A stretch of DNA of 48,631 bases from a virus: positions 1 to 48,631 of IMG/VR virus record IMGVR_UViG_3300002175_000003, one strand, 5' to 3'. The notes under the pieces were generated by a model. That model was not told the DNA's origin. It made no database searches and saw only the letters and a program-made list of their open reading frames with translations. Of this stretch, positions 7,429 through 44,205 are shown in pieces. Both the position numbers and the translations under genes were made by a program. Every line of letters starts with the position of its first letter. Position 1 is the stretch's first letter.

Positions 7429-7430
7429 GA

Positions 7431-7610
7431 CTAGCGCTCCAGTCTCGCGACTTCGTAGCAGTACGTCCCGGTCAGAACGCCGCAGAAGAGCGCCACGAGA
7501 CCGCACGCTACGGTGTAGATCGACCCATTTGGGTCGCAGGCATTGGCCATGACGACAAATGCCTGACAACCGGTGAATGCATAAGCTGTTATCATTGCGA
7601 CCCACTTCAT
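7431..7610 (-). CDS. small membrane protein (59 aa, 2 predicted TM)
   Basis: Hydrophobic sequence. ATG at 7610 has GGAGGG 7 nt upstream and an ATGA overlap with the upstream stop. Confidence 0.55.
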   Translation of the reverse strand: MKWVAMITAYAFTGCQAFVVMANACDPNGSIYTVACGLVALFCGVLTGTYCYEVARLER

Positions 7611-10868: not shown

Positions 10869-10901
10869 AAAAAACCTCCCTCGGTGCGAAACCGAGGGAG
10901 G
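10869..10901 (-). terminator. Rho-independent terminator (minus strand)
   Basis: 11-bp stem CCTCCCTCGGT / ACCGAGGGAGG, 5-nt loop, then T6 on the minus strand. Followed on the plus strand by a (GT)6 run at 10901-10912. Confidence 0.8.
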
Positions 10902-10912
10902 TGTGTGTGTGT

Positions 10913-11539
10913 TCACTGATTGTAGAGCCCATAGTGGGCCCCGACGCAATTTGCGGCCGTAATGGCCGCACGCTCATGAAGCCCACGCCAGTAGTCGGCC
11001 TGCTCGGCCGCTTCGAGCTGGCTGTGCAGCCACTTATTAATGTGGCTGCGAACTAACTCATCGTTGTCTGGGTTTTTGTTACCTATAAGAAGCACCTGAA
11101 GTACGAGACGGTCACGGTATTGGGACACAGTGTCCCAAAAATACTCTATCGCCTGGCGCCGCCGGCGCCTCCTGCGAGCCGGTTCGCGGATAGGACGATT
11201 GGGCTGACCGTCCGAACTGGCGTGCCAGTGTTCACTGCCCGGCAGCGGCCTGACCGGCGTCCCGTAAGACGCCGTGGTCATATTCATTATTTTTTCGTGG
11301 CGCTCAAGGAGGTCGACGGCACGGTCATAGACCGTGACCGTGTCGCGAGCCGTCAGTCCAAAACGCCGGCAAACTGCCCGCGTTAGATCGGCTAAGAACT
11401 TTTCATTTAGCTGCCATACTTCACAATTGTGGAATTCTTTTAGGTCCCGCACAACTCGGGCAGTCTGAGCGACTGCCCGAGTGAGCGCCTGGCGGCGCTC
11501 GGCGAAAAACTCTTTATTCAATTCCCTGACTTTCCTCAT
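10913..11539 (-). CDS. hypothetical protein (208 aa), first gene of the leftward arm
   Basis: ORF track. AGGGAG SD upstream. Internal R-rich stretch RRRRRRQ. Confidence 0.6.
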   Translation of the reverse strand: MRKVRELNKEFFAERRQALTRAVAQTARVVRDLKEFHNCEVWQLNEKFLADLTRAVCRRFGLTARDTVTVYDRAVDLLERHEKIMNMTTASYGTPVRPLPGSEHWHASSDGQPNRPIREPARRRRRRRQAIEYFWDTVSQYRDRLVLQVLLIGNKNPDNDELVRSHINKWLHSQLEAAEQADYWRGLHERAAITAANCVGAHYGLYNQ

Positions 11540-11650: not shown

Positions 11651-11951
11651 TCAATGGGTTAGCTAGGCAGCTCAAATGGCAAAAATGTTGATGACCGCGC
11701 GCTGATTCGTTAAAAATAGCCAAGTAAAATCAGTCACTTAGACGAGCCGTACACAAGTGATTTGACTGCTAAAACTCAGTACTCTTTAGCAATCTCAAGC
11801 GCTTAGGTCATGCCCGCATTAGATACCGCTGCAAATCGACAAGTTGTTGAGCAATTTCAGATACTTAGCCAGTTTGCATGCACAGACTGCATGGCTGGTA
11901 TGTGGTTTTAGCATGGAAACTTCAAAGACCGCTGCAAGATCAAGGGGTTAG
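11651..11951 (+). repeat. Iteron-like array: 6 direct copies of AG(Y)AAWW-TCA(R)N4-6TTAG
   Basis: Copies at 11651-11662, 11730-11741, 11776-11789, 11794-11805, 11857-11868 and 11940-11951. All are in the same orientation, in a stretch with no ORF of 60 aa or more. Confidence 0.6.
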
Positions 11952-12183
11952 TCGAGTTTTAATGGCAGGCGTGCAAAATTGAGTATGCGGCTGTTTACCG
12001 CCGTACGTAAAGAGCATGTGTACGGGTGGTATGAGAGTGTAGTTTTTATTTACCGATATCGATTGCCCCAAATTATAGTAAATCGTCTATGAAAACAGAA
12101 TCCGAAATTCTTCAATGATATCAATAAACGTACACGGTTTGTTCACGGCGTTTTGAATAGGGTGTTGAAATTTTTGAAACTTT

Positions 12184-12491: not shown

Positions 12492-12971
12492 CTAATCTGA
12501 GGCAATTCTCCTCAAACCCGACTCTAATAATCGGTGCATTTTGAGCTTTGGCACGCTTCTGAGTAGCTGATGAAATTGCACCGGCGCAAGCCGATTAGCT
12601 GCCCAAAGTAATTTTAGTAGCGTGCGGTCGTTAAAAATTGTGCCAATAATTCCCTCGGCGCGGCCAATTTTCATTCGCGCTTTAATCCGCTCAATCGGAT
12701 TATTGGACGCTCTAAGCGTGCACTCTGCAGTCTCATATGAAATGCAGGAGGCCATTACGACGTCGCACAGGTGCTCAATCGCCTTAGCTTCTTCGTAGTG
12801 GAGCGCGGTCAATCGAGGCGCCCTGACCGGCTGCAAAGTCGAGGTGCCCGATTTAATCTCCGGTCCGATAATCTCCACCTCGCGCGTACTATTTATTGCG
12901 GCATATAATTCCTGATTATTGGAATATAATTTTAATTCATTGCTAAAACTATATGGTACTAGATTATTCAT
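12492..12971 (-). CDS. hypothetical protein (159 aa); C-terminus resembles the C-terminal catalytic-E region of a DDE transposase (remnant?)
   Basis: Start set to the ATG at 12971 with AGGAGC 7 nt upstream. SNNPIERIKARMKIGRAEGIIGTIFNDRTLLKLL resembles the NPIER..K.....G.F......L.L block of IS256/IS5-type transposases. AT-rich codon usage. Confidence 0.45.
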   Translation of the reverse strand: MNNLVPYSFSNELKLYSNNQELYAAINSTREVEIIGPEIKSGTSTLQPVRAPRLTALHYEEAKAIEHLCDVVMASCISYETAECTLRASNNPIERIKARMKIGRAEGIIGTIFNDRTLLKLLWAANRLAPVQFHQLLRSVPKLKMHRLLESGLRRIASD

Positions 12972-13032
12972 GGCGTGGGCTCCTATATCATCGTACCTTT
13001 TTCTACACCAGGGTACGGTGGGGTTGGCGGGA

Positions 13033-13044
13033 GGGGGGGGGGGG
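13033..13044 (+). repeat. G12 homopolymer (C12 on the minus strand) inside a G-tract cluster at 13020-13056
   Basis: Counted directly. Lies 62-73 nt upstream of the ATG at 12971. Confidence 0.9.
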
Positions 13045-13076
13045 CGGTCGCCGGGGCAAACTGAACCTCTCCCAAA

Positions 13077-13217
13077 CCCCAATTTTTAGACCCCTGAATT
13101 TTAGTAGGGTACCAGGGTAGTCACCCCAATTTTTAGACCCCTGAATTTTAGTAGGGTACCAGAGTAGTCACCCCAATTTTTAGACCCCTGAATTTTAGTA
13201 GGGTACCAGGGTATTCT
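13077..13217 (+). repeat. Three tandem 47-bp repeats (CCCCAATTTTTAGACCCCTGAATTTTAGTAGGGTACCAGGGTAGTCA)
   Basis: Copies start at 13077, 13124 and 13171. There is one mismatch in copy 2, and copy 3 diverges in its last 4 nt. Confidence 0.95.
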
Positions 13218-13270
13218 CGACATAGCCAGCAGGGATATGGTATTCGACACCGCTCCCAGGAGGCCACCTC

Positions 13271-13456
13271 ATGACTCCATTCTACATAATCGACAGCGAC
13301 GGCAAGATTTGCCCCGTCGCCACCTGCTTCGATAAAGACGGCAATGAGACGCTCGACGAATCCAAGATAGAAACAGCGGTCTATTGCAATCCGAACCGGG
13401 GTATGCATCCTTGGGTTGCAGTCAGAAATCCCAGAAATTTACACAGGAGACACTGA
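13271..13456 (+). CDS. hypothetical protein (61 aa), first gene of the rightward late arm
   Basis: AGGAGG lies 7 nt upstream of the ATG. Confidence 0.6.
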   Translation: MTPFYIIDSDGKICPVATCFDKDGNETLDESKIETAVYCNPNRGMHPWVAVRNPRNLHRRH

Positions 13457-13922: not shown

Positions 13923-13978
13923 TTGTGATAGCCTTCCCCGCGGTCGTGACTATTCAGACCGCGGCGGGAGGTATTATT

Positions 13979-16900
13979 ATGGCCAGTGGCGATCTTTTTG
14001 ACGGCGAAGACCAGTTTGAAGGCGGTCTTTACACGCCGGAAAAATTTGAGTGGAAGCCATACGGCAGTTCTACCTCTTCTACCCCTGAGCCCACTCCTTC
14101 TCCTACTCCGGCTGCGGCTCCCGATGCTCCCCTGCCAAGGGCAAGACCCGCCATTCCCGCGGAGGATTCTCCCAGGACTACCCAGTCTTCCCAGACGAGT
14201 GAGCCTGGACAATCTGGCCAGCCAATTTCTTTGGCGCCTTCCAATCCAATCCAGTTGACTCCGACTCCCTCTACTCCCCAGACCCAAGCTGCTCAGGCTC
14301 AACCTGTTCAAACCCCGACTCCTCAAACTCAGGCCGAGCTGGCAAAGAATTCTGCGGCTGCGAAGAACCTGAATGAGGAGAGGGAAGCGTATGTGAAAGC
14401 TTTGGCTTCGGTAGACAGGCAACTTGCTACGGCGCAAAACAAGCCCCTTATTTTTCTGAAAAATTTAGGTGGCATAAATACCTCGTACTCAGACGAAGAC
14501 ATAGCAAAACTGGATGCACGCCGCGGGGAACTGTTCGGAAAGTTGCAAGAAATTGATAAGCAGATAGAAGCGCTTAAAACAGCCAATACGCATGCTTCAC
14601 AGATGGGCGTGTTGCCAAGGACCGCCGGTCAGAACCTGGAAAGTGTCTACTATGATGCCGGGCCAAAGATGGCTGAGGGAAACGTCAGTACGGCGCTGAA
14701 TCTGGCCAGGGCAAAAGATGACGACACTCTCGGGAATGAGGTGAAAGCGGCTGCGAGAAATTCGTACAATAACAACCTGTATAAATTCTTGCCGGCTCTC
14801 AACCGTACGTTGAACAGTGCCGACGCCGCGGTCGGGGAGCTTGATAAGGTAGCGGCCGCCGGTCAGGGCAGGTACGACGAAGCGCGACCGGCCTTGCAGG
14901 CTGAATTTGATAGGTTGACAGCAAGCGCGGGGGTGGCGGAGGTTAAATTGCCGACCGGTCCCGGCAGCGCTTTGAAAGCGGCCGGAGCAGTCGAAACTTT
15001 GAGGTACCAACTTTCTGCCGCGAGGCAGTTATGGGGGAGCCAACTCCAGCAATTCAGTTTGCAGACGAGTTTTACCGCACCGCCGGCTAAAGACATGAAA
15101 GACGTGGATGCGCAATGGCGTCCTGCTTTCAACGTGGGCAATATCGTCCCGGGCACGGGAACGATCGTCATTCCGGAAGACTCCCAGAAAAACCCGTACG
15201 TAGGGCTGAATCTTGGAACCGGAACGGGCGCGTGGGTCAAGACCAATAACTTTGACGAAAGCCCATTCGGACGGGACGGTCAGAGGTCATTGGCGTCAAT
15301 TGACGACGAGAAAAGGATACGTGGAAACATAAACAGCCAGGCAAATGCCCAGATGCTCAGGGAGGGCGTGGCGTTCTCGGTCTTGCATAGTTTGACCAAG
15401 GCGGCGGATAAAGAAGGATGGGATAATGCCAGTACGGTTCAGCACGTAAAGAGCCAACTGGACTCATTGAGCCGAGGCGGCAGCCGAGGTGCGGCCTCAA
15501 CGCCAGGGGTGGCTAAATTCATGGAACGGCTGAATGGCCTTCCGCAAGACATGATTGATAAGATAGATACGCAACTCGCTTCATTCAACTCAGTATTGGC
15601 AGGGACGCCAACTGGCCAGCGCATTTCTAATGCGACCATAGGGCAGTTGAAAAACGCGATTAACAACATCTACGCAGCGCGTATGGACGCGATAGGGAGC
15701 ACGCTCGGGGGAGACGCGAGAGAAGCGGGCAGCCTCGGGTTGCCTATTAGTCGGCTTGGCGTGTCGAGGGACATACAGGATGTCGTCCGACCCCATTGGG
15801 AAGCAGGACGGCGTGAAACATTAGAGAACCTTTTTAATGCGGACTACGTTGTCGATAGTGGCGGTCGATTGGTATTGCGGCAGCCTATGGTCACAGGCGT
15901 GGGGGAGAAACCGGCTGAAAGGGCATGGGTTAAAGGATACTCGCCAACATGGCCCGATCCTTTTGCCGAACCCGCTCAGACCGCAACCCAAACTCCCCAG
16001 GCTGCAACTCAAACTCCACCCGCAACTCGAACTCCCCAAACTCCTCAGACCGCGGAGCCCACTGAAGAGCCGGAACCCAGAATCCTCTACCAAGAACAGC
16101 AACAGCCCTCCCCAGCTTCTTCAACCTCTCCGGAAGGCGGGGGTGCGTTGGCAATGTCTCCAGGGCTTGCCGCCGCGAGGGCAGTTACTGCCCCGACGAC
16201 TCCAACAACTCCCCAGCCCGAAACCCCTGCTACTCCGGCGACCCCGACAACTCCAACGACCCCTGCCACCCAGCCAGAAGCCAGCAACCAATGGCAGCGA
16301 GGGATGAACCCGACGGCTTGGTATGAGGGCGACAAGGACAGGCCTATCGCCTACATCGCGGCGGGGAAGAAGGACGCTTACATTCATCGTTTTGGCAGGG
16401 AAGAAGGCGAAAAACGCTACCAGGAAGATGTTCGGCATCTTTCGGAAACGGCGCGCGCCCGCGGAGCCGTCCCGGTCGTGCTGGCGCCAACATCGGACCA
16501 GGCGTCGCAACAGAGGGAGTTGGAAAAAGAGCTTCAGCAGGCGCGAAAGGATCACCGGAAAGCTTTCGTCGTTTCGCATAGCTTGGGAAGCTACTCCGCG
16601 CGACGCTTGATAAGGGACATGCATTATTCTGACGTCGTTCCGGAAGGAAACTGGATCGGTACCGGCATTACGGATAGAAACGAAGACGTCAACAATGAGT
16701 TGCGGTCCCATGGGGCGAGGGATCATTTTGACCTGCCGCGCGCTATGGCCGAGAAGGCGTGGCGAGAAAGGCAAAGCAGGGCTCCCGAAGCGGCTCCGGG
16801 AACTCCAGGAGCCTCAGAAGCTCCGAACGAACAACCCCAACAGATTGCTTTTCGGAGCGAAGAAGCCGGCCAGCCAGCTAAGCCGATGACCCCAGAAGCG

Positions 16901-19900
16901 TTGCTGCGGTCGCGGCTGGCTCCGTTGCCGCCCAGAACTCCCGCCCCGGCCCCCGAGACCCCGGAGTCTCCCCAGGAAGCTCAGGCCGGTCCGAAACTGG
17001 AATATGTGTCGAACATTCGCGTCAAAGACCGGCCTTATGTCGTGCATGAAACGCTGGCCGGGCAGATCAGGGAAGCCGCCAGACATGCGGGCATCGTGCG
17101 GGTCGTCGTCACGTCCGCCGGTCAGGACAGTGAAAAAACTCCTGGCGCGCGGCGTACGAGTGCCCATTCAGTCAACCATGATCTTGTCGCAAAGGATGGA
17201 AAAATTGGCGGCGGTGCGGCTGACGTGGAGCTTTACGCCCCCGACGGTCACAAGTTGCGCGTAGGCGAGCCTCGCGACGAAGATATGTTGAAAAAATTTG
17301 TCACGAAGGCGGCAGAATTAGGCGTATCGGGATTTGGCGGCAGCGCAAATTACCAGGATGGAAATTTACACGTAGGAGGCGGTGCGCGGCCTGAAACGCA
17401 TTATTGGGGCGGTCCGAAAGATGACGGCGTCCCGGCAAAATGGCTGCCGGGCGCGGCAAAAGAAGGCTGGGAACGAAGGGGCTGGACGGTTAAAGGGCCT
17501 GCCGATCATGGTTTCACCTCGGTCAACCCGCGTGTAGCGCTCCAGCACCGCGAGAGTTTGAGAGCGCAGAGTGGCGAGGTTGAAGCATCGCCGCCCCGGC
17601 AGTACACCCCTGAGGAAAAAATACAGAGGTCGCGTGCTGCCGATGCCCATATCGAGAGTTATGGCGACCCTAATAAAGTACGGTTGTACAGAAACAGGGA
17701 AGGGAAGTTAGTAGAGAGCCAGTACAAAGGCTTGTACCAACTCTCCAGCAAGCAATTCGACGAGTACAATAATGATGTCCGTACGGGAGCGTGGAAAGGC
17801 GAGCCGGTCGTTTTCGGCGGACCAAAAGGCGAAGAGGGCTGGCGCAATCCGGCGTACCAGGAGCGCGTCAAGGAGTGGCGCGAGGCAAAGGACGGAAAAA
17901 TACTGGAAGCCGCGGGGTTCGAAAATAATGGTCCGAACCGGTACATTTTACATAACCAGGGAGCTGCCGGCGGTCCTGCGCTGTTGAGAGCGGCTAAAGA
18001 AAACCCGAATGCACCGGCGTGGCGGGTTGTCAAAGAAGCAGCGCCGAAGGAGCCTGATCCTCTGACGAACATCTCCGGCAACGTTCTGGCGAGCGACTTT
18101 AAGCGCTTCACGGGGCAGGAATGGCCCGGCAGCGCCAGCAAGGTGACCGCCAGTCAACTCGTCAAATATTGGACGAACAAGCACGAGTACCATCAAGAAT
18201 TGGCGGCCAACCCAGGGGCTGCCGTGCGGTCGATGCGGGCACGGCAAGCAGAAGGTGAGGGCGAGGCCGCGGCTGGCGGGATGCTTCGCCGAGGCATTCG
18301 CGCGGTGGGGAGAGCATTGAGCGCGACGAGTTCGGCGCCGGCACGATATGGGGAACCCGGATCGGCGCAACGGCAGGCGGCCGATACGGCGGCAATGCGG
18401 TGGAGAGACGAGCACCCAATCTTGGCTGCGATGACGGAACCGACTGACTACGGGACGCGGCCGCCATCAGAAGTCGAGAGCTACAACCAAGGCATGCAGC
18501 AAGCGGCGAAAATGGTTATCCCGGCAGCCGCGGGCATGGCCGTGGCGCCAATGGGCGCTGCCCTTGTGGGCGGTACCGGCTGGGGCGCGACGGGCGCTGG
18601 CATGGCCGCCGGCGGTTTGGCGGCTGGGGGAACCCAGGCGGGCATGAACGTGCTGTCCGGGCGGCCAGTTGGCGAGAACGTAGTTTCGCAGGCAATTTTT
18701 GGCGGCATACCGGCCGTGCAAGGGACCAAGATTTCTAGCGCCCTTGGTCGGGCGCTTCTCAGTGGGGTCGGCGGGGCTGCCGAACCTGCCATCGAGGGCC
18801 GGGGACCGTACGATATCGGCCTCGCTGGAGTGGTCGGGGCCGGGCTTGGGATCGCTGGTGAGACGGTTGCGCGTGCTGCCCGGGCGCTCCCGAGGTCGGC
18901 GGCCTTGTCCATCGATGCGCTGGGCGAGCGCATGCAACAGGCGTTTGCGGAAATGCCCGAAGAGGCGCAGACGACCGTAAAGAGGCTCCTCGATACGGCG
19001 ACGGATGGGCGAACGCGAGCAGCGCGCGAAAGGGCGCATGCCGAATTGGCGCGAAGGTTCAACATGTCGCCGGAAGAAGTCAGTAATTTCAGGGCGCTTG
19101 CCGATACGCAAACAACACTTGCCGGAAAGCGGCTGATTGAGAAGATTACTGGTGAGCCGGCGCGTCCGCAGACGCCCGAGGAAGCGTCATTTAACTTGCG
19201 GGAAACTGCCAGAGGTGCGTTGAGCGACGCGAGAGCAGACTATCGTTTTGTAGAAAACAGCATCAATAATCGTACCGCGGCGTCGATACGTTCAAACCAT
19301 GCAGGACAGATTGAGCCAACGAATGCGGCACATTCTAGCTACGTGAGGCTTGACGAGATAAATGCAAATACGGCACGACCGCCTGCGACCGGTACGGGGG
19401 CTCCGAGGCAACTCAACAACCGGGAAAAATTTATTCAGTTACGCGAGCTTCGCAGTGATATTACGGCCAGCGCCGCAGTAGAAGACGGGGTGAGAAAATC
19501 AGAGCTACTGAGAGCCAGAAACGAGGTAGACCGGGCAATCAGGGATCATCTTGGGAGGACAGTTCCATCTCATAGCGCCAGAGATTTGGAAATTATGCTT
19601 CGCAATGCCGACAGAAAATACGCAGAAGCAGCCGCAATGGCTGGCGAGCATTTCAATAACTTGAAGGCGGGCAGTCTTAATATGTACGACTTCGGCGAGG
19701 CGATCGTTCGCATGGTTGACAGTAAGTCTGTAAAAAATCCGCTATTGCATGGTTCGGATGCGGGGGAGGCACTCGTCAGAACGTTCTACGCTAATGCCAA
19801 CAGGTACCAAATACCAGCGGCGAGAGAGGCCATAAAAATAGGTCTGATTGACGCGGTATTCAGCAGTGCTCTGAAGAAGAAGGAAGAAATAACGAAGGCT

Positions 19901-20299
19901 GCAAACAGGTTTATAAATGGCGACCTTATGGGGGTTGCCGAAATAGTGTTCTCGCCGGCCGAGAGGAGACGCTTGCAGCACATTGCGGATAACCCCGAAC
20001 CGTACTACACGGCAAGACGCGATACAGGGTACGGTGGTCGTGGCGCCGTTGTAGGTGCTTACGCGACCGCGCACATGGTTCATGGGATTATTCCGGGTGC
20101 TGAAGTGGTTCCAGGGGCGCTAACTGGGGCGGAACGAATCAGGGCCATGGTTCTAAGTCGCCGAGCGAGTGACGTGCGAAAATACAGCGAATTAGCTTCT
20201 CGCCCGATGAGGCATTTTTTGAGCGAGACCGGTTCGATGATCGGTGCTGAAACCGGCAGAGACGTAAATGAGAGGACTCGCAGCCATGCTGTTCGGTAA
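13979..20299 (+). CDS. giant virion-associated multidomain protein (2106 aa): alpha/beta-hydrolase-like, LAS/M15-type zinc peptidase, SLT-like transglycosylase, Gly/Ala-rich TM segments
   Basis: Start at the ATG 13979 with GGGAGG upstream. Motifs: SHSLGS nucleophile elbow (~16570); SAHSVNH..GGAADVE..GNLHVG (~17000-17390); HIESYGDPN...GLYQLS (~17640-17760). Gly-zipper hydrophobic region ~18500-18870. P/T/Q linkers. Confidence 0.75.
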   Translation: MASGDLFDGEDQFEGGLYTPEKFEWKPYGSSTSSTPEPTPSPTPAAAPDAPLPRARPAIPAEDSPRTTQSSQTSEPGQSGQPISLAPSNPIQLTPTPSTPQTQAAQAQPVQTPTPQTQAELAKNSAAAKNLNEEREAYVKALASVDRQLATAQNKPLIFLKNLGGINTSYSDEDIAKLDARRGELFGKLQEIDKQIEALKTANTHASQMGVLPRTAGQNLESVYYDAGPKMAEGNVSTALNLARAKDDDTLGNEVKAAARNSYNNNLYKFLPALNRTLNSADAAVGELDKVAAAGQGRYDEARPALQAEFDRLTASAGVAEVKLPTGPGSALKAAGAVETLRYQLSAARQLWGSQLQQFSLQTSFTAPPAKDMKDVDAQWRPAFNVGNIVPGTGTIVIPEDSQKNPYVGLNLGTGTGAWVKTNNFDESPFGRDGQRSLASIDDEKRIRGNINSQANAQMLREGVAFSVLHSLTKAADKEGWDNASTVQHVKSQLDSLSRGGSRGAASTPGVAKFMERLNGLPQDMIDKIDTQLASFNSVLAGTPTGQRISNATIGQLKNAINNIYAARMDAIGSTLGGDAREAGSLGLPISRLGVSRDIQDVVRPHWEAGRRETLENLFNADYVVDSGGRLVLRQPMVTGVGEKPAERAWVKGYSPTWPDPFAEPAQTATQTPQAATQTPPATRTPQTPQTAEPTEEPEPRILYQEQQQPSPASSTSPEGGGALAMSPGLAAARAVTAPTTPTTPQPETPATPATPTTPTTPATQPEASNQWQRGMNPTAWYEGDKDRPIAYIAAGKKDAYIHRFGREEGEKRYQEDVRHLSETARARGAVPVVLAPTSDQASQQRELEKELQQARKDHRKAFVVSHSLGSYSARRLIRDMHYSDVVPEGNWIGTGITDRNEDVNNELRSHGARDHFDLPRAMAEKAWRERQSRAPEAAPGTPGASEAPNEQPQQIAFRSEEAGQPAKPMTPEALLRSRLAPLPPRTPAPAPETPESPQEAQAGPKLEYVSNIRVKDRPYVVHETLAGQIREAARHAGIVRVVVTSAGQDSEKTPGARRTSAHSVNHDLVAKDGKIGGGAADVELYAPDGHKLRVGEPRDEDMLKKFVTKAAELGVSGFGGSANYQDGNLHVGGGARPETHYWGGPKDDGVPAKWLPGAAKEGWERRGWTVKGPADHGFTSVNPRVALQHRESLRAQSGEVEASPPRQYTPEEKIQRSRAADAHIESYGDPNKVRLYRNREGKLVESQYKGLYQLSSKQFDEYNNDVRTGAWKGEPVVFGGPKGEEGWRNPAYQERVKEWREAKDGKILEAAGFENNGPNRYILHNQGAAGGPALLRAAKENPNAPAWRVVKEAAPKEPDPLTNISGNVLASDFKRFTGQEWPGSASKVTASQLVKYWTNKHEYHQELAANPGAAVRSMRARQAEGEGEAAAGGMLRRGIRAVGRALSATSSAPARYGEPGSAQRQAADTAAMRWRDEHPILAAMTEPTDYGTRPPSEVESYNQGMQQAAKMVIPAAAGMAVAPMGAALVGGTGWGATGAGMAAGGLAAGGTQAGMNVLSGRPVGENVVSQAIFGGIPAVQGTKISSALGRALLSGVGGAAEPAIEGRGPYDIGLAGVVGAGLGIAGETVARAARALPRSAALSIDALGERMQQAFAEMPEEAQTTVKRLLDTATDGRTRAARERAHAELARRFNMSPEEVSNFRALADTQTTLAGKRLIEKITGEPARPQTPEEASFNLRETARGALSDARADYRFVENSINNRTAASIRSNHAGQIEPTNAAHSSYVRLDEINANTARPPATGTGAPRQLNNREKFIQLRELRSDITASAAVEDGVRKSELLRARNEVDRAIRDHLGRTVPSHSARDLEIMLRNADRKYAEAAAMAGEHFNNLKAGSLNMYDFGEAIVRMVDSKSVKNPLLHGSDAGEALVRTFYANANRYQIPAAREAIKIGLIDAVFSSALKKKEEITKAANRFINGDLMGVAEIVFSPAERRRLQHIADNPEPYYTARRDTGYGGRGAVVGAYATAHMVHGIIPGAEVVPGALTGAERIRAMVLSRRASDVRKYSELASRPMRHFLSETGSMIGAETGRDVNERTRSHAVR

Positions 20300-20769: not shown

Positions 20770-20904
20770 CTACAAACATTTTTTCCTCCTGAGAAAGTCA
20801 GGGATATCGAGAGGGTGTCGCTGACCGGGCCAGAGGCCGGTCACGGGGTTGCGTTGCAGTTCTGGCCGGTCCCATGGCCAGCGTGGTCGTTCCCAAGGGT
20901 ACAT
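20770..20904 (-). CDS. small W/P/R-rich protein (44 aa), antisense to the late arm
   Basis: ATG at 20904 is preceded by GGAGGAATAAA. That SD overlaps the stop of the upstream 47-aa ORF. Confidence 0.5.
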   Translation of the reverse strand: MYPWERPRWPWDRPELQRNPVTGLWPGQRHPLDIPDFLRRKKCL

Positions 20905-20905
20905 T

Positions 20906-21049
20906 TTATTCCTCCAGAAAGAGCAGGATTCCGGCGACGGCAGCGAGGCCGATGGAAACGGCAATTTTGTTTGTTGCGCCTGCCGCACCAGAAAAAACGC
21001 ACAAGATTGCTGCTGTGAGGCTTTTCAGGCGTCTGCGGGGGTATTCCAT
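20906..21049 (-). CDS. small membrane protein (47 aa, 2 TM)
   Basis: ATG at 21049 with AGGAGA 9 nt upstream. Hydrophobic segments LTAAILCVFSGAAGA and IAVSIGLAAVAGILLFL. Confidence 0.5.
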   Translation of the reverse strand: MEYPRRRLKSLTAAILCVFSGAAGATNKIAVSIGLAAVAGILLFLEE

Positions 21050-21080
21050 TTTTGCATGTCTCCTATGCAATTTTTTCATA

Positions 21081-21106
21081 CCGTACACGTGTACGTGTGT
21101 ACGCTT
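21081..21106. promoter_or_regulatory. Operator-like cluster: 14-bp perfect palindrome CGTACACGTGTACG (21082-21095) overlapping GTGTGTACGCTT (21095-21106, reverse complement AAGCGTACACAC)
   Basis: Read directly. Sits in the divergent intergenic region between 21049(-) and 21154(+). Confidence 0.7.
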
Positions 21107-21153
21107 TTGCCGTGATAACGTCAACGGGTAAATCAAACTTTGGAGTTAACAGG

Positions 21154-21894
21154 ATGCCTAATCCTATCGTCAATTGGCCCACTCCTGGCGGTGGGTTCCG
21201 GCATTTTTCCGGGCTTCTGCCGTGTTCTTCGCTGCTCGGCGACCCACATCATGCTTCGGTGCGTACGTTTCACGTGCCGATTGCGAATACGCAGGCTATT
21301 TTCCGCGGCGATATTGTTGTCTGGGCTGATGCAGCGCATCCGACCCAGGGGGCAGCCGACATGCCCTACAATGTTGCCGCACCCGTCCCGGCACCATCTG
21401 TGGCAAATCCCGGATTCGGCGGGACCGGTCTGGGCAACAGCTCAATGGCCCCAAATGTGGCACGCTGGACGCCCGGCGACACGACGAGTTCGATTGCCGG
21501 CGTAGTTGTCGGCTTCGGGCCGATCACGCTCTTCATGGCCAAAAACGGCTTTCAGTACATCCCGGCTGGGATGGAAGCGTGGGTTTCGGTCGATACCGAC
21601 CCCGATCTCGAAATGTACGCTACGTTCCCGGCAGTTCCGGCGACCGCATTCAGGCTGCAACTTGGCAGCAATATCGACGTGATCACCGATCTGACGAAGC
21701 AGAGCGTGAAGTTCGGAATCAGCGGTCTTTCACTCGACGCAGCAACGATCGCCCTTACGCCAACGCTGCCGTTGCGCGTGCTTAACAGCACGTTCCAGAT
21801 TGGTAACATTCCGGAAGTGTCTGGGTTCGTCGCTCGTGTAACATTTAACCGAAACCGGCACCTTCGTGGAAATGCTGGCCCCGTTGCTGACTAA
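21154..21894 (+). CDS. hypothetical virion protein (246 aa)
   Basis: ATG at 21154 with TGGAG upstream. High GC3. Located in the late arm. Confidence 0.6.
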   Translation: MPNPIVNWPTPGGGFRHFSGLLPCSSLLGDPHHASVRTFHVPIANTQAIFRGDIVVWADAAHPTQGAADMPYNVAAPVPAPSVANPGFGGTGLGNSSMAPNVARWTPGDTTSSIAGVVVGFGPITLFMAKNGFQYIPAGMEAWVSVDTDPDLEMYATFPAVPATAFRLQLGSNIDVITDLTKQSVKFGISGLSLDAATIALTPTLPLRVLNSTFQIGNIPEVSGFVARVTFNRNRHLRGNAGPVAD

Positions 21895-22287: not shown

Positions 22288-22509
22288 ATGACGATTGACG
22301 TTCCGACGCAATTTCCGGGCTCAAAAATGGCGCAGGCTGTTCGGCTCGGACAGTCGCAATTTTTGAACGTTGAGGGGATTTCCTCAACTGGCCAGCAGAC
22401 AATGATTGCCGATTTTCAGTCGCTCATTTCTGGGACTGGTACGATGAACGCCATTCTGACGGACATAAAGACGACAACGCAGGATATCCGCAACCTTTTT
22501 GCCGGGTGA
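22288..22509 (+). CDS. 73-aa stand-alone copy of the fibre N-terminal module
   Basis: [38 protein letters not shown] parallels the N-terminus of the next gene. The DNA is also repeated (22278-22400 vs 22504-22626). Confidence 0.55.
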   Translation: MTIDVPTQFPGSKMAQAVRLGQSQFLNVEGISSTGQQTMIADFQSLISGTGTMNAILTDIKTTTQDIRNLFAG

Positions 22510-22513
22510 TGAA

Positions 22514-23122
22514 ATGACAATCGACGTACCGACGCAATTTCCGAAGTCGATAAAGGCTCAATCCGCCCGGATTGGGCAGTCTCGTTTTCGCAATGTCGAG
22601 GGGATTTCCTCAACTGGCCAGCAAACGATCATATCCGAGTTGCAGACGCTCATTACGTCGATCAACACGGCCAACAATACGCTAACGGACACGAAGACGC
22701 TGGTACAGGGCATTGACGGTCTGTTAAAAAACGGCGCACCCGGAACGGTGTTGACGACAACTTCGGCAGGCATCGTGTGGGCGCCAGCGGAGTCATATTC
22801 GTTGGATGAACACCTGACTGGCGGGGTCTGGATCGACGGGAAGCCGATTTATCGCAAGACGATAGACACTGGCGGGTTGCCGAACGCGACTTCAAAAAAC
22901 GTTACGCACAACATTACAGGATTGACGTGGCTCGTAAAGATGTTCGGCACGGCGTTTGATTCGCTGGCTCAGGCTGATTTCATTGTGTTGCCGCTGGTTG
23001 TGTCAACTGCGATAGCAAATAACGTATCGCTATCTTTTTACCCAACTTACGTTTCACTGGCGACCGCTGTTGATCGAACATCGTACACACGATCTTACGT
23101 GACACTGGAGTACGTGAAGTGA
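22514..23122 (+). CDS. tail fibre protein (202 aa) with [10 protein letters not shown]-type C-terminal domain
   Basis: Start at the ATG 22514. The C-terminal ~110 aa are paralogous to the C-terminus of 24942..25676 (both end YVT(L/I)EYVK). Confidence 0.7.
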
Positions 23123-29110: not shown

Positions 29111-29440
29111 ATGCAGCGCACTCTCGCATCTGCTACCGATCTTGAATACTCCACTGCCGACAACAAGATGATCCGCATGCAGGCAAAATTCTTGGAGCTA
29201 GATTTTTCGGTTCCTTTTGACGCCTGTTTGACCTTTCCGGATGCACACCAGCGCAATGCTTACACCCGCGCCGTCGCCGGTGAGTTTGGTCCTGTCGCAC
29301 CGTATAAACCAATCACAATGAAAGGTTTCAAGCTCGACGAAAATGGCAAACCTGTAAAAGGCGAAGAAACCGATACGTTAATTCGGCATGCGTATTTAGG
29401 CGAAAATAACCAACTGCGGTTTGAGTATAAGGCGGCCTAG
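29111..29440 (+). CDS. hypothetical protein (109 aa), possibly a fibre assembly factor for tip A
   Basis: GGAGGA SD. Position is analogous to Mu U. The function is inference only. Confidence 0.5.
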   Translation: MQRTLASATDLEYSTADNKMIRMQAKFLELDFSVPFDACLTFPDAHQRNAYTRAVAGEFGPVAPYKPITMKGFKLDENGKPVKGEETDTLIRHAYLGENNQLRFEYKAA

Positions 29441-29453
29441 GCCGCCTTTTTTT
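29431..29453 (+). terminator. Rho-independent terminator (plus strand)
   Basis: GGCGGCC-TA-GGCCGCC palindrome followed by T7. Confidence 0.8.
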
Positions 29454-29823
29454 ATGCGATACGTATAAATTGATTTGACGGATAAGTTGGTTTGAAACCA
29501 CCGATACTAGAGCCAGAGAGTTGCACTTCGTATTTTGCCCCGTTTACCCCAATCCATGTTCCATCGACAGGCGGTATACTGTATGCAGTCTCAAATATCG
29601 ATGGCGCTATCGCGATACATTGCGCCCGCGTAAATGGCGCAGATGCACCCATTATGTCCGTGTAAAAGGTACTGCCTATATTTTTACCGTCCATGCTAGG
29701 TTCAGCAGTAGCTGCATAGAGATGGTAAAAAACATACACCGTATCGGGAATTATACCGGTAAAAACGATAGCGTATGCCGTGGCGCTTCCTGCACTCGGG
29801 TCTCCAGTAGTTTCCCATGCGAT
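29452..29823 (-). other. Promoterless, start-less alternative fibre tip cassette (tip B, 124 codons)
   Basis: The frame stays open through the right inverted repeat. Shares GCNWV, P(V)(P/D)GTWIGVNG and a terminal QF(V/I)RIA with tip A. No SD or ATG of its own. Confidence 0.75.
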
Positions 29824-29882
29824 AACCCAATTGCACCCCACAGGCCATCTATTACTTGGGGAAGGGGTGCCGGAGCCGCCCT
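29824..29882 (-). repeat. Right inverted repeat (59 bp, perfect)
   Basis: Reverse complement of 28634-28692. Overlaps the terL stop codon (29881-29883) by 2 nt. Confidence 0.95.
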
Positions 29883-31416
29883 ATCTCGGTGTGTCGTAGT
29901 CGTTGACGGCAAACGTGCAGATCACCGCGTCGAGGCGGTCGGGAGACCGGCCAATTTCTGCCCGTATCTTTTCTTTCGGCGTAACGAACAGGCGCGCATG
30001 CTCGTCGCGACGACAGCCGGCGGTCCCCCATTTGTATGCAGCGCATTCTTCTTGCAGCATTTTGTCATTCTTGACCGAGACTGACCCGTTCAAATACTGG
30101 GCAAATTTGAAGTGAAGCTCAGCGCGACGATTGGCAAACTGCACGGAATTATGGGCGCCAGAACCGAAGCTGACCGGGATGATCCTGTTCCCCCGGTCGC
30201 GCATTCGCAGCCGGAGAGCGTCGACGAGACCCTTGCCGATGCCGGTCGAGTCAATGCAGATGACGTCCATATCGTAGCGTTCGTACGCGGCCCGTATCCA
30301 GTCTGCCTGGACGTTCTGGTCGGAATTTTTAATCTCGCCCCAAATTCTGTTCCCGATGCAGCACCCCTGGCGGTCGCAGACGAACGTGCTGTCGGAACCG
30401 TCGCCGGCTGGATCGACAGCCAGAATTTTCAACGTTCCTTCCGTCGGCGGAACCCGAGACAGCATGGCTTGCTGGACGAGTGACGGCGGGAAGAAATCGA
30501 GAGTGCTGTCGGCCAGAAAACATTCGGAATAAGTGACTGGAAATTCTTGTCGCGTGAGCCGATGAATGCTGTCAGGCGTGCCGCCGTTCATTGTGGCGAT
30601 GTCGTAGTTCTTCCGATAAAACCAGTAAGTTTGCGGCGGCGTCAACCTATGGATGCGACTGTACTCGACGAGTTCAAGTGGAGGCTGCCACTTATCCGGA
30701 ACCTCTTCTTTGTAGTCCACCATGGCGGTCCATGGTAGAAAATGCATGCGCCAAAGACCGGTGTTGTTTTCCCGATGCGCCTGTTCGCACATATTGAAAA
30801 ACATGCCGCTCGCCCCGTTGCCGGTCGATTCCATGAAAATTTCCGTGCCGACTTGATCGAGCACGGTCTGTAAAATTCCAGACGACAAGTCTTCGGTGTT
30901 GTCAAAAAAAGCGGCCTCGGAAAAGTGTAGATAGTGAGTGTCTTCTGACCGCCCGATGTTCCCGCCTTCCGCCGACGAAACGCGGTAGGACGATTGGAGT
31001 CGGCTGAAAATCAACTCACGTGCGTTTGAGGCGCCGGTCACTGGCCGGATAGGTTCCGGAAGTTCTTCGTAGAATGTGCGGACTTCGCGATGAAGGTGGC
31101 TGGCGCTATCGTTACGGTGAGCCACAACGTGGGCTCGCCGGCCGCGTTTTGACAAGACTGCGTGGAAGAACCGCGCGCTGATGTAGGTTGAAACGCCCAT
31201 GCGGCGCGCTTTTGGGACAAGCGCGCGCACGCGGCCGTACGTTTTCCTCTCCAATTCGATACGCTGGTGGAGAATTTCTTGTGCTGGGTTGAGGATAAAG
31301 TGGATGCGTCGGCCGCCTTCGCGCGGCCGAATCATCAGGAATCTTTCGCGGTACCAGTTGAAATCGCAGATGCGGTCACTGATAGCTTGCGGGGTTGCCC
31401 TTTCCCATGGCCACAT
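29881..31416 (-). CDS. terL: terminase large subunit
   Basis: Walker A-like KARRMGVST. Nuclease-domain motifs AVDPAGDGSD, IDSTGIGKG and C-terminal SPDRLDAV. Confidence 0.85.
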   Translation of the reverse strand: MWPWERATPQAISDRICDFNWYRERFLMIRPREGGRRIHFILNPAQEILHQRIELERKTYGRVRALVPKARRMGVSTYISARFFHAVLSKRGRRAHVVAHRNDSASHLHREVRTFYEELPEPIRPVTGASNARELIFSRLQSSYRVSSAEGGNIGRSEDTHYLHFSEAAFFDNTEDLSSGILQTVLDQVGTEIFMESTGNGASGMFFNMCEQAHRENNTGLWRMHFLPWTAMVDYKEEVPDKWQPPLELVEYSRIHRLTPPQTYWFYRKNYDIATMNGGTPDSIHRLTRQEFPVTYSECFLADSTLDFFPPSLVQQAMLSRVPPTEGTLKILAVDPAGDGSDSTFVCDRQGCCIGNRIWGEIKNSDQNVQADWIRAAYERYDMDVICIDSTGIGKGLVDALRLRMRDRGNRIIPVSFGSGAHNSVQFANRRAELHFKFAQYLNGSVSVKNDKMLQEECAAYKWGTAGCRRDEHARLFVTPKEKIRAEIGRSPDRLDAVICTFAVNDYDTPR

Positions 31417-31637
31417 TATTTTTTGCCGGTTTTTATTTCCAAGCCAAAAATTAGCCCGAGGCCAATGAGCAGGGCGTTCCCGAGGTCGATGCTTTCAAAC
31501 CCTGGAATCTCAACCCCAAATACTGACCGCGCGGTTGCGGCAGCAATAACTGCAAGACCGGCGACGGTCGTTTTCCAGTGTATGAGACATTGCTGAAGGA
31601 ACGAGGATTTTTCGGGTGTCGTAGGGGTATCGGTCAT
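31416..31637 (-). CDS. small membrane protein (73 aa, 2 TM); holin candidate
   Basis: Start at the ATG 31637 with AAGGAGAA 7 nt upstream. The stop overlaps the terL ATG. Confidence 0.5.
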   Translation of the reverse strand: MTDTPTTPEKSSFLQQCLIHWKTTVAGLAVIAAATARSVFGVEIPGFESIDLGNALLIGLGLIFGLEIKTGKK

Positions 31638-31657
31638 AGTTGCGTTCTCCTTTGAAT

Positions 31658-31670
31658 CCGTACACACTAC
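31658..31670. promoter_or_regulatory. CCGTACACACTAC copy of the strand-switch motif
   Basis: Lies in the 37-nt divergent gap between 31637(-) and 31675(+). Confidence 0.5.
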
Positions 31671-31674
31671 TACC

Positions 31675-32091
31675 ATGAAGCGTCTTGAGCATCAATTATC
31701 CGTTATTTTTCGTCCGCCGGGCGGTGCGCCGTTTCGTGTGGATGTCCAACGCCTTCGGGACGCCGTAACAATAGCGAGGCTAGCAAACATGAGTGCTCTG
31801 TCTGAAAAGCTTGCGAAAGCCCGCCAAGTCGCGAGCGACTTGCGCGGAAAGATGATGAGGGATGCCGATGCCCTGCTGGCAAAAGGCGAGAAGCTTGACA
31901 AGAAGCGAGAAGAAGTTTTTGCCGCGCACCAAGCCGATCTCGACACTTCAGCAGGCGAGCTTGACGCTCTTGACCGAGAGCTTGACCTTTTCTCCAACGA
32001 GCCCCGCCCTACGCCGCCTACCTCAGGTGGCGTTGCCGGTGGCGGAACGGATATTAATTGGGTGCGGAATGATCCAAAGAGCGTTATCTAG
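31675..32091 (+). CDS. coiled-coil hypothetical protein (138 aa or shorter)
   Basis: ORF track. Charged heptad-like central region. The start is uncertain (an internal MSALSEKL is possible). Confidence 0.45.
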   Translation: MKRLEHQLSVIFRPPGGAPFRVDVQRLRDAVTIARLANMSALSEKLAKARQVASDLRGKMMRDADALLAKGEKLDKKREEVFAAHQADLDTSAGELDALDRELDLFSNEPRPTPPTSGGVAGGGTDINWVRNDPKSVI

Positions 32092-35846: not shown

Positions 35847-36341
35847 TCACCCGTGCAACTCGTTTGCCGTAATCCGTTCGCGGGGACCAGCATAATCGGC
35901 TTCTTTCTTTGTTGCGGGGACCGGGTCGGCTTCATCGTCGGTCCACTGGAGCTTGTCGACGTCGACGATTGACTCAAACTTGCCTGCTGGCCACCAGCCG
36001 ACAGCATCGCGATGGGTGGAGATATAGCGCCAGCCGCCGGTCGAGACCGTGGGGCCTTTAATCGCATGAAACTGGGTTCCGGCTCCCCATGTGTAAAGCA
36101 CCCAATCTCCGGCATGTACGGGATGTTGCTGGTACTCGCCATTCACGTTTTGATACGCGAATGCCAGCGGTCCTAAGCGCACGATTTTTCCGAATTGCGT
36201 ACTATGTTGCGCAAGCTCGCGAGCAATGTCCGGCATGATAAGCGACCCTAGTTTTTTCGACGGATAAGGGACGCGAATAAGAATCATGTCACGAACAGGT
36301 TGGATATGTTGATGGGGTAGCTCTATGTCATAAAGGGACAT
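35847..36341 (-). CDS. GroES/Cpn10-like protein (164 aa)
   Basis: The pattern I.P..D.ILI......KLGSLIMPD......G.IV..G......GD.V.Y parallels co-chaperonin GroES. Confidence 0.45.
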   Translation of the reverse strand: MSLYDIELPHQHIQPVRDMILIRVPYPSKKLGSLIMPDIARELAQHSTQFGKIVRLGPLAFAYQNVNGEYQQHPVHAGDWVLYTWGAGTQFHAIKGPTVSTGGWRYISTHRDAVGWWPAGKFESIVDVDKLQWTDDEADPVPATKKEADYAGPRERITANELHG

Positions 36342-38443: not shown

Positions 38444-38457
38444 AAGCGTACACACTT
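38444..38457. promoter_or_regulatory. AAGCGTACACACTT copy of the strand-switch motif
   Basis: Identical 14-mer to 44176-44189. In the divergent portal/capsid intergenic region. A TTGACG-N18-TAAAAA promoter-like pair lies downstream at 38474-38503. Confidence 0.6.
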
Positions 38458-38555
38458 TGTCAACGGCTGAATTTTGACGAGGTTACACCAAGCGTGGTAA
38501 AAAGATAAATCGACGTTCAACACGGCCCTGGAGGCCGCCACAGGGGAATCAAACC

Positions 38556-43623: not shown

Positions 43624-44055
43624 TTATATCTCTATTTTTTCCAGGTATTTTTCGAAGTCGAAAAATGACCGGCAAACAAAGTAGTGGTACCGCGGCCCAA
43701 GGGCGGTCCATCGCCGCTGGAATTCTTCTTGCTTTGGGGACAAATGACCGCCGGGGGCCTTAAGCTCGATGGCGTAGCTCCCAGTTGCCGTGAAGAAGAG
43801 GAAGTCTGGGCAGCCTGGAACGACACCCATGCGCTTGAGTTTGGTCGCGGTCGCAACGTCGCGCGGTTCGCCATTTGGCACGTGAAAAATCACAAGCTCA
43901 GGACGGTTCTTCTGGACCCACTGCCAAATGTGCATGTGGATTGTTTTTTCACGAATCGGGCGGGATAAGGCCCTTCGTCTTAAGCTCTCGCTCTCGATTT
44001 TCGACATACCAGCGAATTGCCTCTCTTCCAGCACTCGTATGCGTTTCGACGTCAT
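43624..44055 (-). CDS. VRR-NUC domain nuclease
   Basis: GVVPGCPDFLFF...YAIELKAPGGHLSPKQEEF matches the PD..(D/E)xK VRR-NUC signature. The 5' end overlaps the upstream RHH ORF, so the start is uncertain. Confidence 0.75.
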   Translation of the reverse strand: MTSKRIRVLEERQFAGMSKIESESLRRRALSRPIREKTIHMHIWQWVQKNRPELVIFHVPNGEPRDVATATKLKRMGVVPGCPDFLFFTATGSYAIELKAPGGHLSPKQEEFQRRWTALGPRYHYFVCRSFFDFEKYLEKIEI

Positions 44056-44155
44056 CGTGGTTCCTGACGATGTAATCGAGCCGACGCCAAAGTGAGACCG
44101 GCAACCGCACGGTCATCGTCTTTGAGGTCTTCCCGCGTTTTGACTGCGTTTCCAT
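43949..44155 (-). CDS. ribbon-helix-helix (CopG/Arc-like) DNA-binding protein
   Basis: TMTVRLPVSLWRRLDYIV beta-strand/helix pattern. Start chosen at the ATG 44155 so that the conserved motif at 44176-44189 is intergenic. The ATG at 44116 is also possible. Confidence 0.55.
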   Translation of the reverse strand: METQSKRGKTSKTMTVRLPVSLWRRLDYIVRNHDDVETHTSAGREAIRWYVENRERELKTKGLIPPDS

Positions 44156-44175
44156 GATGCCGTACCATACCGGCA

Positions 44176-44189: not shown

Positions 44190-44205
44190 CAATCGGGCGA
44201 ACACC

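Follow-up and report, generated by a model that had tools for sequence, protein, structure and literature searches.

What is the short, GTAC-rich element that lies between two divergently oriented genes at 21 kb of this phage genome, and what kind of protein, if any, would read it? The original prediction described a perfect 14-bp palindrome fused to a recurring 12-mer in a divergent promoter gap, and took the arrangement for the operator of a dimeric regulator. The window, by which we mean the whole stretch of 48,631 nt analysed here, is a genome of about 48.5 kb assembled as a circle (its first and last 100 bases are identical). Its genes were mapped by ORF inspection, SD sequences and homology, with no gene caller, and the landmarks used below are as follows.

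4918–7605, minus strand: primase/helicase of 895 aa, carrying a weak winged-helix segment
20770–21049, minus strand: micro-cassette of two small ORFs, both with SD sequences
20770–20904, minus strand: 44-aa ORF of the micro-cassette, with the motif HPLDIPDFLRR
20906–21049, minus strand: 47-aa hydrophobic ORF of the micro-cassette, SD GGAG, start at 21049
21154–21894, plus strand: 246-aa structural-module gene with no assigned function
from 23119, start codon GTG: collagen-like tail fibre
29881–31416, minus strand: large terminase
36328–38427, minus strand: portal
38556–39482, plus strand: major capsid
45816–47744, minus strand: family-A DNA polymerase

A DEAD helicase, a DUF2800 exonuclease, a Gp2.5-like SSB and a VanY-type peptidase were also identified in the window, together with a 2124-aa protein that matches nothing in the family libraries and has the look of an internal virion protein. 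Among GenBank phages we found neither near-identical DNA for the window nor a match to the 246-aa protein, and the best capsid identity to GenBank or cultured phages is about 35%. No integrase was found in the window, and 185,579 species genomes yielded no prophage or host relatives. Searches with tblastn placed relatives of the 44-aa micro-cassette ORF at 11 loci.

The gap between the 47-aa ORF and the 246-aa gene measures 104 nt (21050–21153), as originally described, and the perfect palindrome is indeed present in it. The gap contains the following elements.

21080–21112: the sequence acCGTACACGTGTACGTGTGTACGCTTTTGCCG
21081–21104: three abutting 8-bp GTAC-centred boxes, CCGTACAC, GTGTACGT and GTGTACGC, with GTAC at 21083, 21091 and 21099
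21082–21095: perfect 14-bp palindrome CGTACACGTGTACG
21095–21106, minus strand: first of three copies of the 12-mer AAGCGTACACAC (plus-strand reading GTGTGTACGCTT), overlapping the third box
21096–21124, minus strand: predicted sigma70-like promoter of the micro-cassette, with -35 TTGACG (21124–21119), a 17-nt spacer and a -10-like TACACA (21101–21096)
21107–21134, plus strand: by our own reading, a possible weak promoter of the 246-aa gene, TTGCCG (21107–21112), a 16-nt spacer and TAAATC (21129–21134), abutting the array

The three GTAC cores keep a register of exactly 8 bp, and when read on the minus strand the boxes form direct 8-bp repeats, GTACACAC-GTACACGT-GTACGGTA; the 14-bp palindrome arises because the first 4-bp spacer, ACGT, is self-complementary. 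Using the 246-aa gene as a marker, we collected about 100 related loci from soil metagenomes and IMG/VR, many of them on contigs of 50–53 kb. The closest relative (L004, 70% protein identity) carries GTACACAC-GTACACA-GTACACAC in the orthologous gap, that is, direct repeats of 8, 7 and 8 bp, and no 14-bp palindrome. Another relative, L041, has GTACACAC twice. Because L004 repeats the box and lacks the palindrome, the conserved unit, judged by sequence comparison, is the repeated GTAC-centred box and not the palindrome. Across the family, two or three GTAC cores lying 4–14 bp apart were seen in 34 of 69 distinct orthologous gaps, compared with 7.3% of control windows, and these doublets adjoin the start of a variable minus-strand cassette. 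The palindrome had been regarded as the special unit of the site, a status it loses both by its absence from L004 and by its length, which is ordinary by chance: the genome holds seven perfect palindromes of at least 14 bp where 3.9 are expected, and at least one such palindrome appears in 96.5% of Markov-1 simulations.

These observations bear on the possibility that the palindrome is the two-fold operator of a single dimeric HTH-type regulator of the lambda CI/Cro kind, with the 12-mer as an auxiliary third half-site. A perfect palindrome in a divergent promoter gap is what such a regulator would bind, and two relatives, L005 and L006, carry a 12-bp palindrome, CGTACATGTACG, at the orthologous place. 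However, beyond the chance-level length and the direct repeats of L004, the spacing of the GTAC cores varies across the family, the remaining sites in the genome are all single asymmetric words, and no HTH family matched any of about 75 scanned ORFs, save for the weak winged-helix stretch inside the 895-aa primase/helicase. We therefore regard an HTH operator of this type as very improbable. A further proposal is that a GTAC methyltransferase modifies these clustered sites and thereby decides whether a regulator can bind, on the model of the GATC clusters of Mu mom and agn43, or else that the region acts as an RNA or DNA hairpin. Three 4-bp palindromic sites do recur here at regular spacing in a regulatory gap, and GTAC doublets are common there throughout the family; but what is enriched measures 7 to 12 bp, GTAC alone being present 178 times in the genome against 162 expected (and rejected as the unit for that reason), and no methyltransferase was found among the ORFs scanned. 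As to a hairpin, RNA folding of the palindrome region was no better than that of shuffled sequences (z = -0.9 and -1.0), the structure is not conserved, and a terminator in particular was rejected as being in the wrong location. An epigenetic switch or hairpin is in our estimation barely credible.

Is the element itself anything more than chance? The heptamer CGTACAC, hereafter the word, occurs 14 times in the genome, whereas dinucleotide shuffles contain 3.1 ± 1.9 copies and none of 100 shuffles reached 14. Nine of the 14 copies fall in the 6.3% of the DNA that is noncoding (binomial p = 2.4e-8, or about 2e-4 after Bonferroni correction), and in an unbiased scan of all 7761 7-mers the word came out as the most noncoding-enriched, bearing out the intergenic enrichment that the original prediction expected. 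The feature is real, non-random and functional-looking. In its longer form the genome-wide word is (AAG)CGTACAC(AC), and the consensus of the boxes is close to the palindrome GTGTACAC.

The word is present at five of the six divergent junctions of the window, with three copies in the early control region, three in the 21-kb gap, one each at 31.65 kb, between portal and capsid and at 44.18 kb, and none at 42.63 kb. Two further claims made for this DNA hold up here: the 12-mer recurs at strand-switch points, in exact copies at 38444 and 44176, and the half-sites suggested for the non-coding control region are there as three dispersed copies of the word. The sites and their surroundings are listed below.

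11748 (plus), 12018 (minus) and 12129 (plus): three dispersed copies of CGTACAC in the large non-coding control region (11748–12135) between the early minus-strand and plus-strand operons
23082–23090, plus strand: single CGTACACAC inside the 3' end of gene 22499–23122, 37 nt before the tail-fibre GTG
31659–31667, plus strand: single CGTACACAC in a 37-nt gap that separates gene 31675 (plus) from a small minus-strand gene preceding the large terminase
38444–38455, plus strand: second copy of the 12-mer AAGCGTACACAC, in the portal-capsid divergent gap
38474–38503, plus strand: predicted capsid promoter, TTGACG (38474–38479), an 18-nt spacer and TAAAAA (38498–38503)
43949–44155, minus strand: 68-aa RHH-like ORF, METQSKRGKTSKTMTVRLPVSLWRRLDYIVRNHDD..., unannotated, directly behind the 44.18-kb junction; candidate regulator
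44140–44168, plus strand: predicted promoter facing gene 44206, TTGACT (44140–44145), a 17-nt spacer and TACCAT (44163–44168), found by consensus scan
44164–44192, minus strand: predicted promoter of the 68-aa gene, TTGAAG (44192–44187), a 17-nt spacer and TATGGT (44169–44164), then 8 nt to the ATG at 44155
44176–44187, plus strand: third copy of the 12-mer AAGCGTACACAC, in the spacer of the predicted 68-aa-gene promoter and 20 nt from that ORF
45410–45808, minus strand: early protein of 132 aa, RHH_1 domain at its C-terminal end (residues 101–127); second candidate regulator

The small gene ahead of the large terminase probably starts at the ATG at 31637 (SD AAGGAG) and not at 31676. The copy at 23082 is the sole intra-operon copy and falls outside what an operator model explains. 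From 23 to 46 kb the word has eight copies, every one of them on the plus strand.

Where promoters could be predicted, the boxes lie on or next to their cores. Transcription of the micro-cassette would begin near 21089, and the three boxes would therefore span about -13 to +7. At 44.18 kb the promoter of the 68-aa gene reads TTGAAG-tGTGTACGctttgccgg-TATGGT, and since only 8 nt separate TATGGT from the ATG, the mRNA of this gene is probably near-leaderless. The -10 of the opposing promoter overlaps that of the 68-aa gene, and the 12-mer lies at about +1 to +12 of the opposing transcript; with overlapping -10s and a start on the 12-mer, one bound protein could control both directions. In the portal-capsid gap, TGTCAA (38458–38463), the minus-strand TTGACA, follows two bases past the 12-mer, and no credible -10 was found in the window for a predicted portal promoter. 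A strict consensus scan called only the plus-strand promoter at 44140–44168 among those predicted here. In terms of predicted sequence elements, then, the array sits on the micro-cassette promoter and the word sits inside the candidate regulator's own promoter, and we consider it quite probable that the feature is a protein-binding operator placed in promoter cores.

The same placement could also suggest that a polymerase or specificity factor reads the word directly, which would make it a promoter element comparable to those of T4 late or T7-type promoters: a -10-type or start-site box peculiar to the phage, with the sequence TACACA or, from the other strand, TACGCT. Three operons have the exact 12-mer at their starts, with 8 to 100 nt between it and the start codon in one direction or the other; TACACA lies 17 nt past TTGACG in the 21-kb gap, with the same geometry in about 11 relatives; and the opposite strand of the 12-mer, GTGTGTACGCTT, contains a TAnnnT-type hexamer. 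More broadly, on the minus strand of 17 of 70 related gaps a GTAC is preceded by a TTG-type hexamer, 16–18 nt before its TAC, and 11 of these gaps have TTGAC. We tried TACGCT as a -10 and found tidy distances to four start codons and no accompanying -35, and this candidate was kept only as part of the promoter-element proposal. On the other hand, the remaining sites in the window have no -35 at the right distance, and searches of about 75 ORFs (a few small ones being left out) against Pfam, PHROGs and NCBIfam found no RNA polymerase or sigma-like gene. The 2124-aa ORF was considered as a virion RNA polymerase and rejected, having no Pfam, PHROG or PDB match and PT-rich linkers that are not polymerase-like. 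Moreover, promoters predicted from sequence for the homologues of the 68-aa ORF in about 19 distinct lineages have the form TTGnnn-N17/18-TAnnnN with the lineage's word inside the spacer, either right behind the -35 or beside the -10 and in either orientation; as its position in the spacer varies, the word is not a fixed polymerase element. A promoter element thus seems improbable, if somewhat less so than an HTH operator.

The most telling evidence comes from comparison with relatives. Contigs with close capsid homologues were fetched for comparison of the portal-capsid gap, where each lineage was found to have its own word at the same position, just ahead of GTCAA (TTGAC on the other strand).

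Window: CGTACACac-ttt-GTCAA
L106 and L107: GTGTACAC-ttt-GTCAA
L111: GTATACA-aaa-TCAA
L109 and L112: GTATGACA-(a)-GTCAA

Within a spacer that has otherwise diverged, L106 and L107 read gtGTGTACACtttGTCAA and the window aagCGTACACactttGTCAA. The junction upstream of the ejection-protein gene shows the same kind of replacement, with CGTACACacTTCAA in the window, TGTCATACaaGTCAA in L109 and TGTATACAgGTCAA in L111. Related soil phages carry lineage variants of the word (TGTATACA, TGTATGACA, TGTACACA and CGTACACA) at orthologous positions, each genome reusing its own variant at several junctions, and the variants form a mutational series running from TGTATACA through TGTACACA (L106) to CGTACACA (window), and to TGTATGACA by a 1-nt insertion. 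When two loci per genome were sampled, the class of word in the RHH-like-gene promoter was that of the 246-aa-gene gap in five of seven genomes, and the other two had the near variants GTATAC and GTATACC; the class GTACACA was represented in this comparison by the window only. Two apparent cases were set aside: the portal-capsid gap of L003 contains an inserted gene and no word, and a GTATACA before the tail-fibre gene of L074, seemingly at the same position, lies in the collagen-repeat coding region and was dismissed as chance. A word that differs by lineage, holds its positions and recurs at several promoters per genome suggests a site recognised by a DNA-binding specificity that the genome itself encodes. 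The sites are thus conserved in related phages, as predicted, in the sense that the core stays in place in the closest relatives, within spacers that have otherwise diverged. The proposed operator for a regulator stands as well insofar as these comparative data fit a phage-encoded regulator, though its supposed anatomy, half-sites of a one-dimer palindrome, is wrong given the direct repeats of L004.

Which protein might bind? The 68-aa ORF behind the 44.18-kb junction has homologues at the same place in relatives, where they are usually called genes overlapping the next gene (a VRR-NUC nuclease); the homologue in L109 is an uncalled ORF, though L135 has this protein as a called gene. The single sequence used as a query gave no candidate homologues and a profile was needed, with which we found 50 family members, nearly all from related phage contigs. 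Two of these are annotated by JGI as 'CopG/Arc/MetJ family transcriptional regulator'. The ORF shows a strand-helix-helix sequence pattern, and two AF2 monomer models (pLDDT 67–68) place helices at residues 20–32 and 36/41–61 with the strand unformed; fold searches with both models were uninformative. Profile matches to the PDB stayed below threshold, with E = 0.16 to 1.3; CopG/Arc/MetJ-family proteins account for four of the seven best, and two of these, the CopG-family protein 6xrw_B and NikR, align with the ORF in register from ribbon to helix B. No Pfam or NCBIfam family matched it, and an hhalign comparison with the RHH_1 protein of the window was insignificant, aligning 14 columns at a probability of 0.5%. 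On balance we treat an RHH fold as likely for the 68-aa ORF.

RHH proteins read bases through ribbon positions 2, 4 and 6 (PMC3413123). The ribbon of the window's 68-aa ORF is KTMTVRLP, those of relatives include TVVVSARVS and KMISVRLP, and the residues predicted to face outward track the word: V/I-S-R goes with GTATACA, M-S-R, M-C-R and R-N-R go with GTATGACA, and T-T-R is found in the window. This link is no more than suggestive, being confounded by shared ancestry, and the ribbons M-S-R and R-N-R share one word. We lean, by a modest margin, towards a binding protein of RHH type, and would put the chances that it is the 68-aa ORF itself at about even or slightly lower.

The original prediction counted two RHH proteins in this genome. 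One of them, the 132-aa early protein, does match Pfam RHH_1, passing the cut-off of that family with E = 9.6e-5, while the 68-aa protein is RHH-like and has no such match. It is conceivable, then, that the GTAC-box array is the operator of a second, family-wide factor distinct from the binder of the word in the RHH-gene promoter, with the 132-aa protein, the 196-aa or 208-aa early proteins or some unrecognised protein as candidates. GTAC doublets also turn up where the RHH-promoter word of a lineage is GTATACA or GTATGACA, and two relatives carry both kinds of word side by side in the gap: L041 has GTACACACGTACACAC plus two copies of GTATGACA, and L076 has TTGACT-GTCATAC..-CGTACACAC. The triple box may accordingly descend from a separate GTAC-type element, the two words being one and the same in the window. 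Relatives of the 196-aa ORF adjoin word arrays in L074. The 208-aa protein, proposed earlier as a binder, is singled out by no result and simply stays on the list. Against two factors, the third box matches letter for letter the 12-mer that also occupies the RHH promoter spacer and the portal-capsid gap, and the window has no second class of word, GTATGACA and GTATACA each occurring once, in coding DNA. Against the 132-aa protein in particular, it is absent from some relatives, L109 and L112, both of which keep the word system. We consider a second factor unlikely, though it deserves more weight than a promoter element.

An operator read by one phage RHH protein has close precedents. In E. coli, MetJ binds tandem, abutting, near-palindromic 8-bp met-boxes, one beta-ribbon of an RHH dimer to each and cooperatively, and the boxes of the window are likewise abutting, 8 bp long and arranged in tandem over a predicted promoter. 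MetJ differs in being a cellular regulator of about 105 aa that needs a co-repressor, and no sequence similarity to the window was found. The core of the met-box is ACGT (PMC3413123). ParG of plasmid TP228, another RHH protein, recognises 4-bp boxes with invariant 4-bp spacers, direct or inverted, one dimer per box, in an array located downstream of the -10, and its homologues recognise different tetramers (PMC3413123). Here too 4-bp cores lie 8 bp apart centre to centre, in an array at the predicted promoter -10; however, the spacers (ACGT and GTGT) are not AT-rich, there are only three boxes and mostly single-box sites, and the candidate regulator is not a partition protein. The RHH protein omega/ParB of pSM19035 acts as a global regulator through contiguous 7-bp repeats of mixed orientation upstream of several promoters (PMC9499535). 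A 7-bp unit occurs in the array of L004, but omega arrays have 7 to 10 heptads, a stable complex requires several contiguous repeats, and the system belongs to a plasmid and not a phage. Most sites in the window are single boxes, though several RHH proteins need two or more.

Phages offer two further comparisons. In the immI region of P22, the RHH repressors Arc and Mnt act, with autoregulation, at operators inside the overlapping, opposed promoters Pant and Pmnt. Positions 44140–44192 of the window resemble this, with two opposing predicted promoters, overlapping -10s and the word between or over them. The P22 sites, in contrast, are about 21 bp long, bound by a tetramer and confined to one locus, whereas the window's word is short and found at divergent junctions that include those of late structural operons; again no sequence similarity to the window was found. 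The stoperators of mycobacteriophage L5 gp71 are a short asymmetric word in many genomic copies, mostly in short intergenic gaps and with strand bias. L5 differs in having more than 20 sites oriented with transcription, an HTH repressor and a temperate life; the window has about 10 functional-looking sites, located in promoter cores, and shows no sign of lysogeny, and its word does not behave as a stoperator. The array is best filed as an instance of the known RHH-type repeat operators in a phage family that is unstudied, its added value being the series of operator variants across lineages.

Our preferred reading, held with somewhat better than even confidence and built on sequence comparison, is that the array is a multi-site operator of a phage RHH regulator, probably a repressor, and that the word marks its regulon. 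A phage RHH protein, most likely the 68-aa ORF, would bind one dimer per 8-bp box, and neighbouring dimers would cooperate to fill the triple site at 21081–21104. Dimers on the array would cover the -10 and start site of the promoter that serves the micro-cassette, along with the adjoining upstream edge of the late-gene promoter region. Host RNA polymerase would be shut out, and the promoters that carry the word, that of the 68-aa gene included, would thereby be repressed and timed. Single boxes in other promoter cores could then give weaker, graded control, again including autoregulation. The promoters and start sites, the RHH fold, the identity of the binder and repression in place of activation are all things we infer, the last because of the position of the boxes.

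A bolder version, which we offer as a tentative and rather doubtful one, would put a large uncultured family of soil phages of about 50 kb under one master switch, a single RHH protein of 65–75 aa. It would act through one word at five of six divergent junctions, among them that of its own near-leaderless gene and those of the operons for portal, capsid, terminase and tail, and the operator series TGTATACA, TGTACACA, CGTACACA and TGTATGACA would go along with substitutions at the second and fourth ribbon positions. If that is true, the family would provide a ready data set for the RHH recognition code and for orthogonal repressor/operator pairs. Even if the operator model is false, the word would still serve as a dependable sign of promoter regions when genomes of this family are annotated. 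If the model is true, the lineage variants of the operator and the accompanying ribbon substitutions would amount to a natural experiment on the evolution of RHH specificity, the word would mark divergent promoter regions with the small repressor as a candidate timer of late genes, and the result would be the first regulatory map of a widespread, uncultured family of soil phages.

A second promoter-associated word of the window, besides the CGTACAC-type word of its divergent junctions, is the 9-mer CTGAATTTT, which occurs five times (at 13094, 13141, 13188, 20597 and 38467) and in all five cases in noncoding DNA. The copy at 38467 continues straight into the predicted -35 of the capsid promoter in the portal-capsid divergent gap (CTGAATTTTGACG), that at 20597 continues straight into TTGCAT, and the 9-mer is found, together with GGTACC, in every unit of one repeat:

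13076-13213, 47-bp tandem repeat, 2.9 copies, 97% identical

This repeat, which is preceded by a poly-G tract (13033-13046) and lies just upstream of the plus-strand operon beginning at 13271, may be either an origin or a region of tandem promoters; the minus-strand ORF that overlaps it (13148-13408) is probably spurious.

Two opposed promoters with overlapping -10 hexamers are predicted at 44140-44192, the junction between the minus-strand ORF for a 68-aa RHH-like candidate regulator and the plus-strand gene at 44206:

44163-44168, plus strand, -10 TACCAT, predicted promoter
44169..44164, minus strand, -10 TATGGT, predicted promoter

Given these predictions, RNA polymerase could engage this junction in one orientation at a time only. 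At another junction, the longest-ORF start of the minus-strand ORF at 31416-31676 (31676) is probably wrong. An alternative ATG at 31637 (minus) has a strong SD, AAGGAG, and starting there leaves a 37-nt gap that contains the CGTACAC-type word. The product would then be a 73-aa membrane-like protein encoded upstream of the large terminase, and not obviously a small terminase. As for the orientation of the word, all eight copies of CGTACAC between 23 and 46 kb (23082-45965) are on the plus strand, regardless of the strand of the surrounding gene, an event of about 1% under random orientation in a pattern that was spotted post hoc.

In the micro-cassette beside the three-box GTAC array, the first ORF (47 aa, minus strand) has its SD, GGAG, in the loop of an inverted repeat, TTGCAT-N7-ATGCAA (21052-21070, minus), that folds better than shuffled sequences (z = -2.1) and is kept in the closest relative, the soil-phage locus L004 (about 1570-1600; z = -2.9), and that may act as a hairpin controlling translation. 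A perfect palindrome of 20 bp, AAGGCGGCCTAGGCCGCCTT, with a T-run after it (29429-29455), lies at the convergent junction 29440/29452 and is probably a bidirectional intrinsic terminator. At 10871-10912, flanked by an A-run that reads as a T-run on the minus strand, there is a strong hairpin, CCTCCCTCGG-N7-CCGAGGGAGG, followed by a (GT)n tract; the hairpin comes directly behind the first early gene (10913-11539; 208 aa) and could therefore be an early terminator or attenuator.

Two further features concern a probable virion gene and the tail-fibre gene:

13925-20299, ORF of 2124 aa
23201-23333, 63-bp tandem repeat, 2.1 copies, 98% identical, tail-fibre gene, within its collagen-like part

Pfam, PHROGs and PDB gave no match for the 2124-aa ORF, and the loci fetched contained just one weak relative of it. 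The ORF contains long linkers rich in P, T and Q, is unlike the corresponding region in most family members, and probably encodes an internal or ejected virion protein.

The window is a complete, circularly assembled genome of about 48.5 kb: its first 100 bp are duplicated exactly at its end (1-100 = 48532-48631). The JGI, ENA and Logan (SRR6206236) assemblies all include the same contig.

Among related soil-phage loci, L074 has in its control region (1900-2100) an array in which the palindrome CTGGTATACAGTATACCAG, made from that lineage's word GTATAC, is repeated about four times; the array adjoins an ORF homologous to the 196-aa ORF of the window (12492-13082). The main word in L005 and L012 is GTATGACA, and in both, GTAC doublets lie immediately 3' of a -35 in control-region promoters (L005 782, L012 611; TTGACGTACGCGTAC...TATGTT). 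The presence of such doublets in GTATGACA lineages hints at a second GTAC-reading factor.
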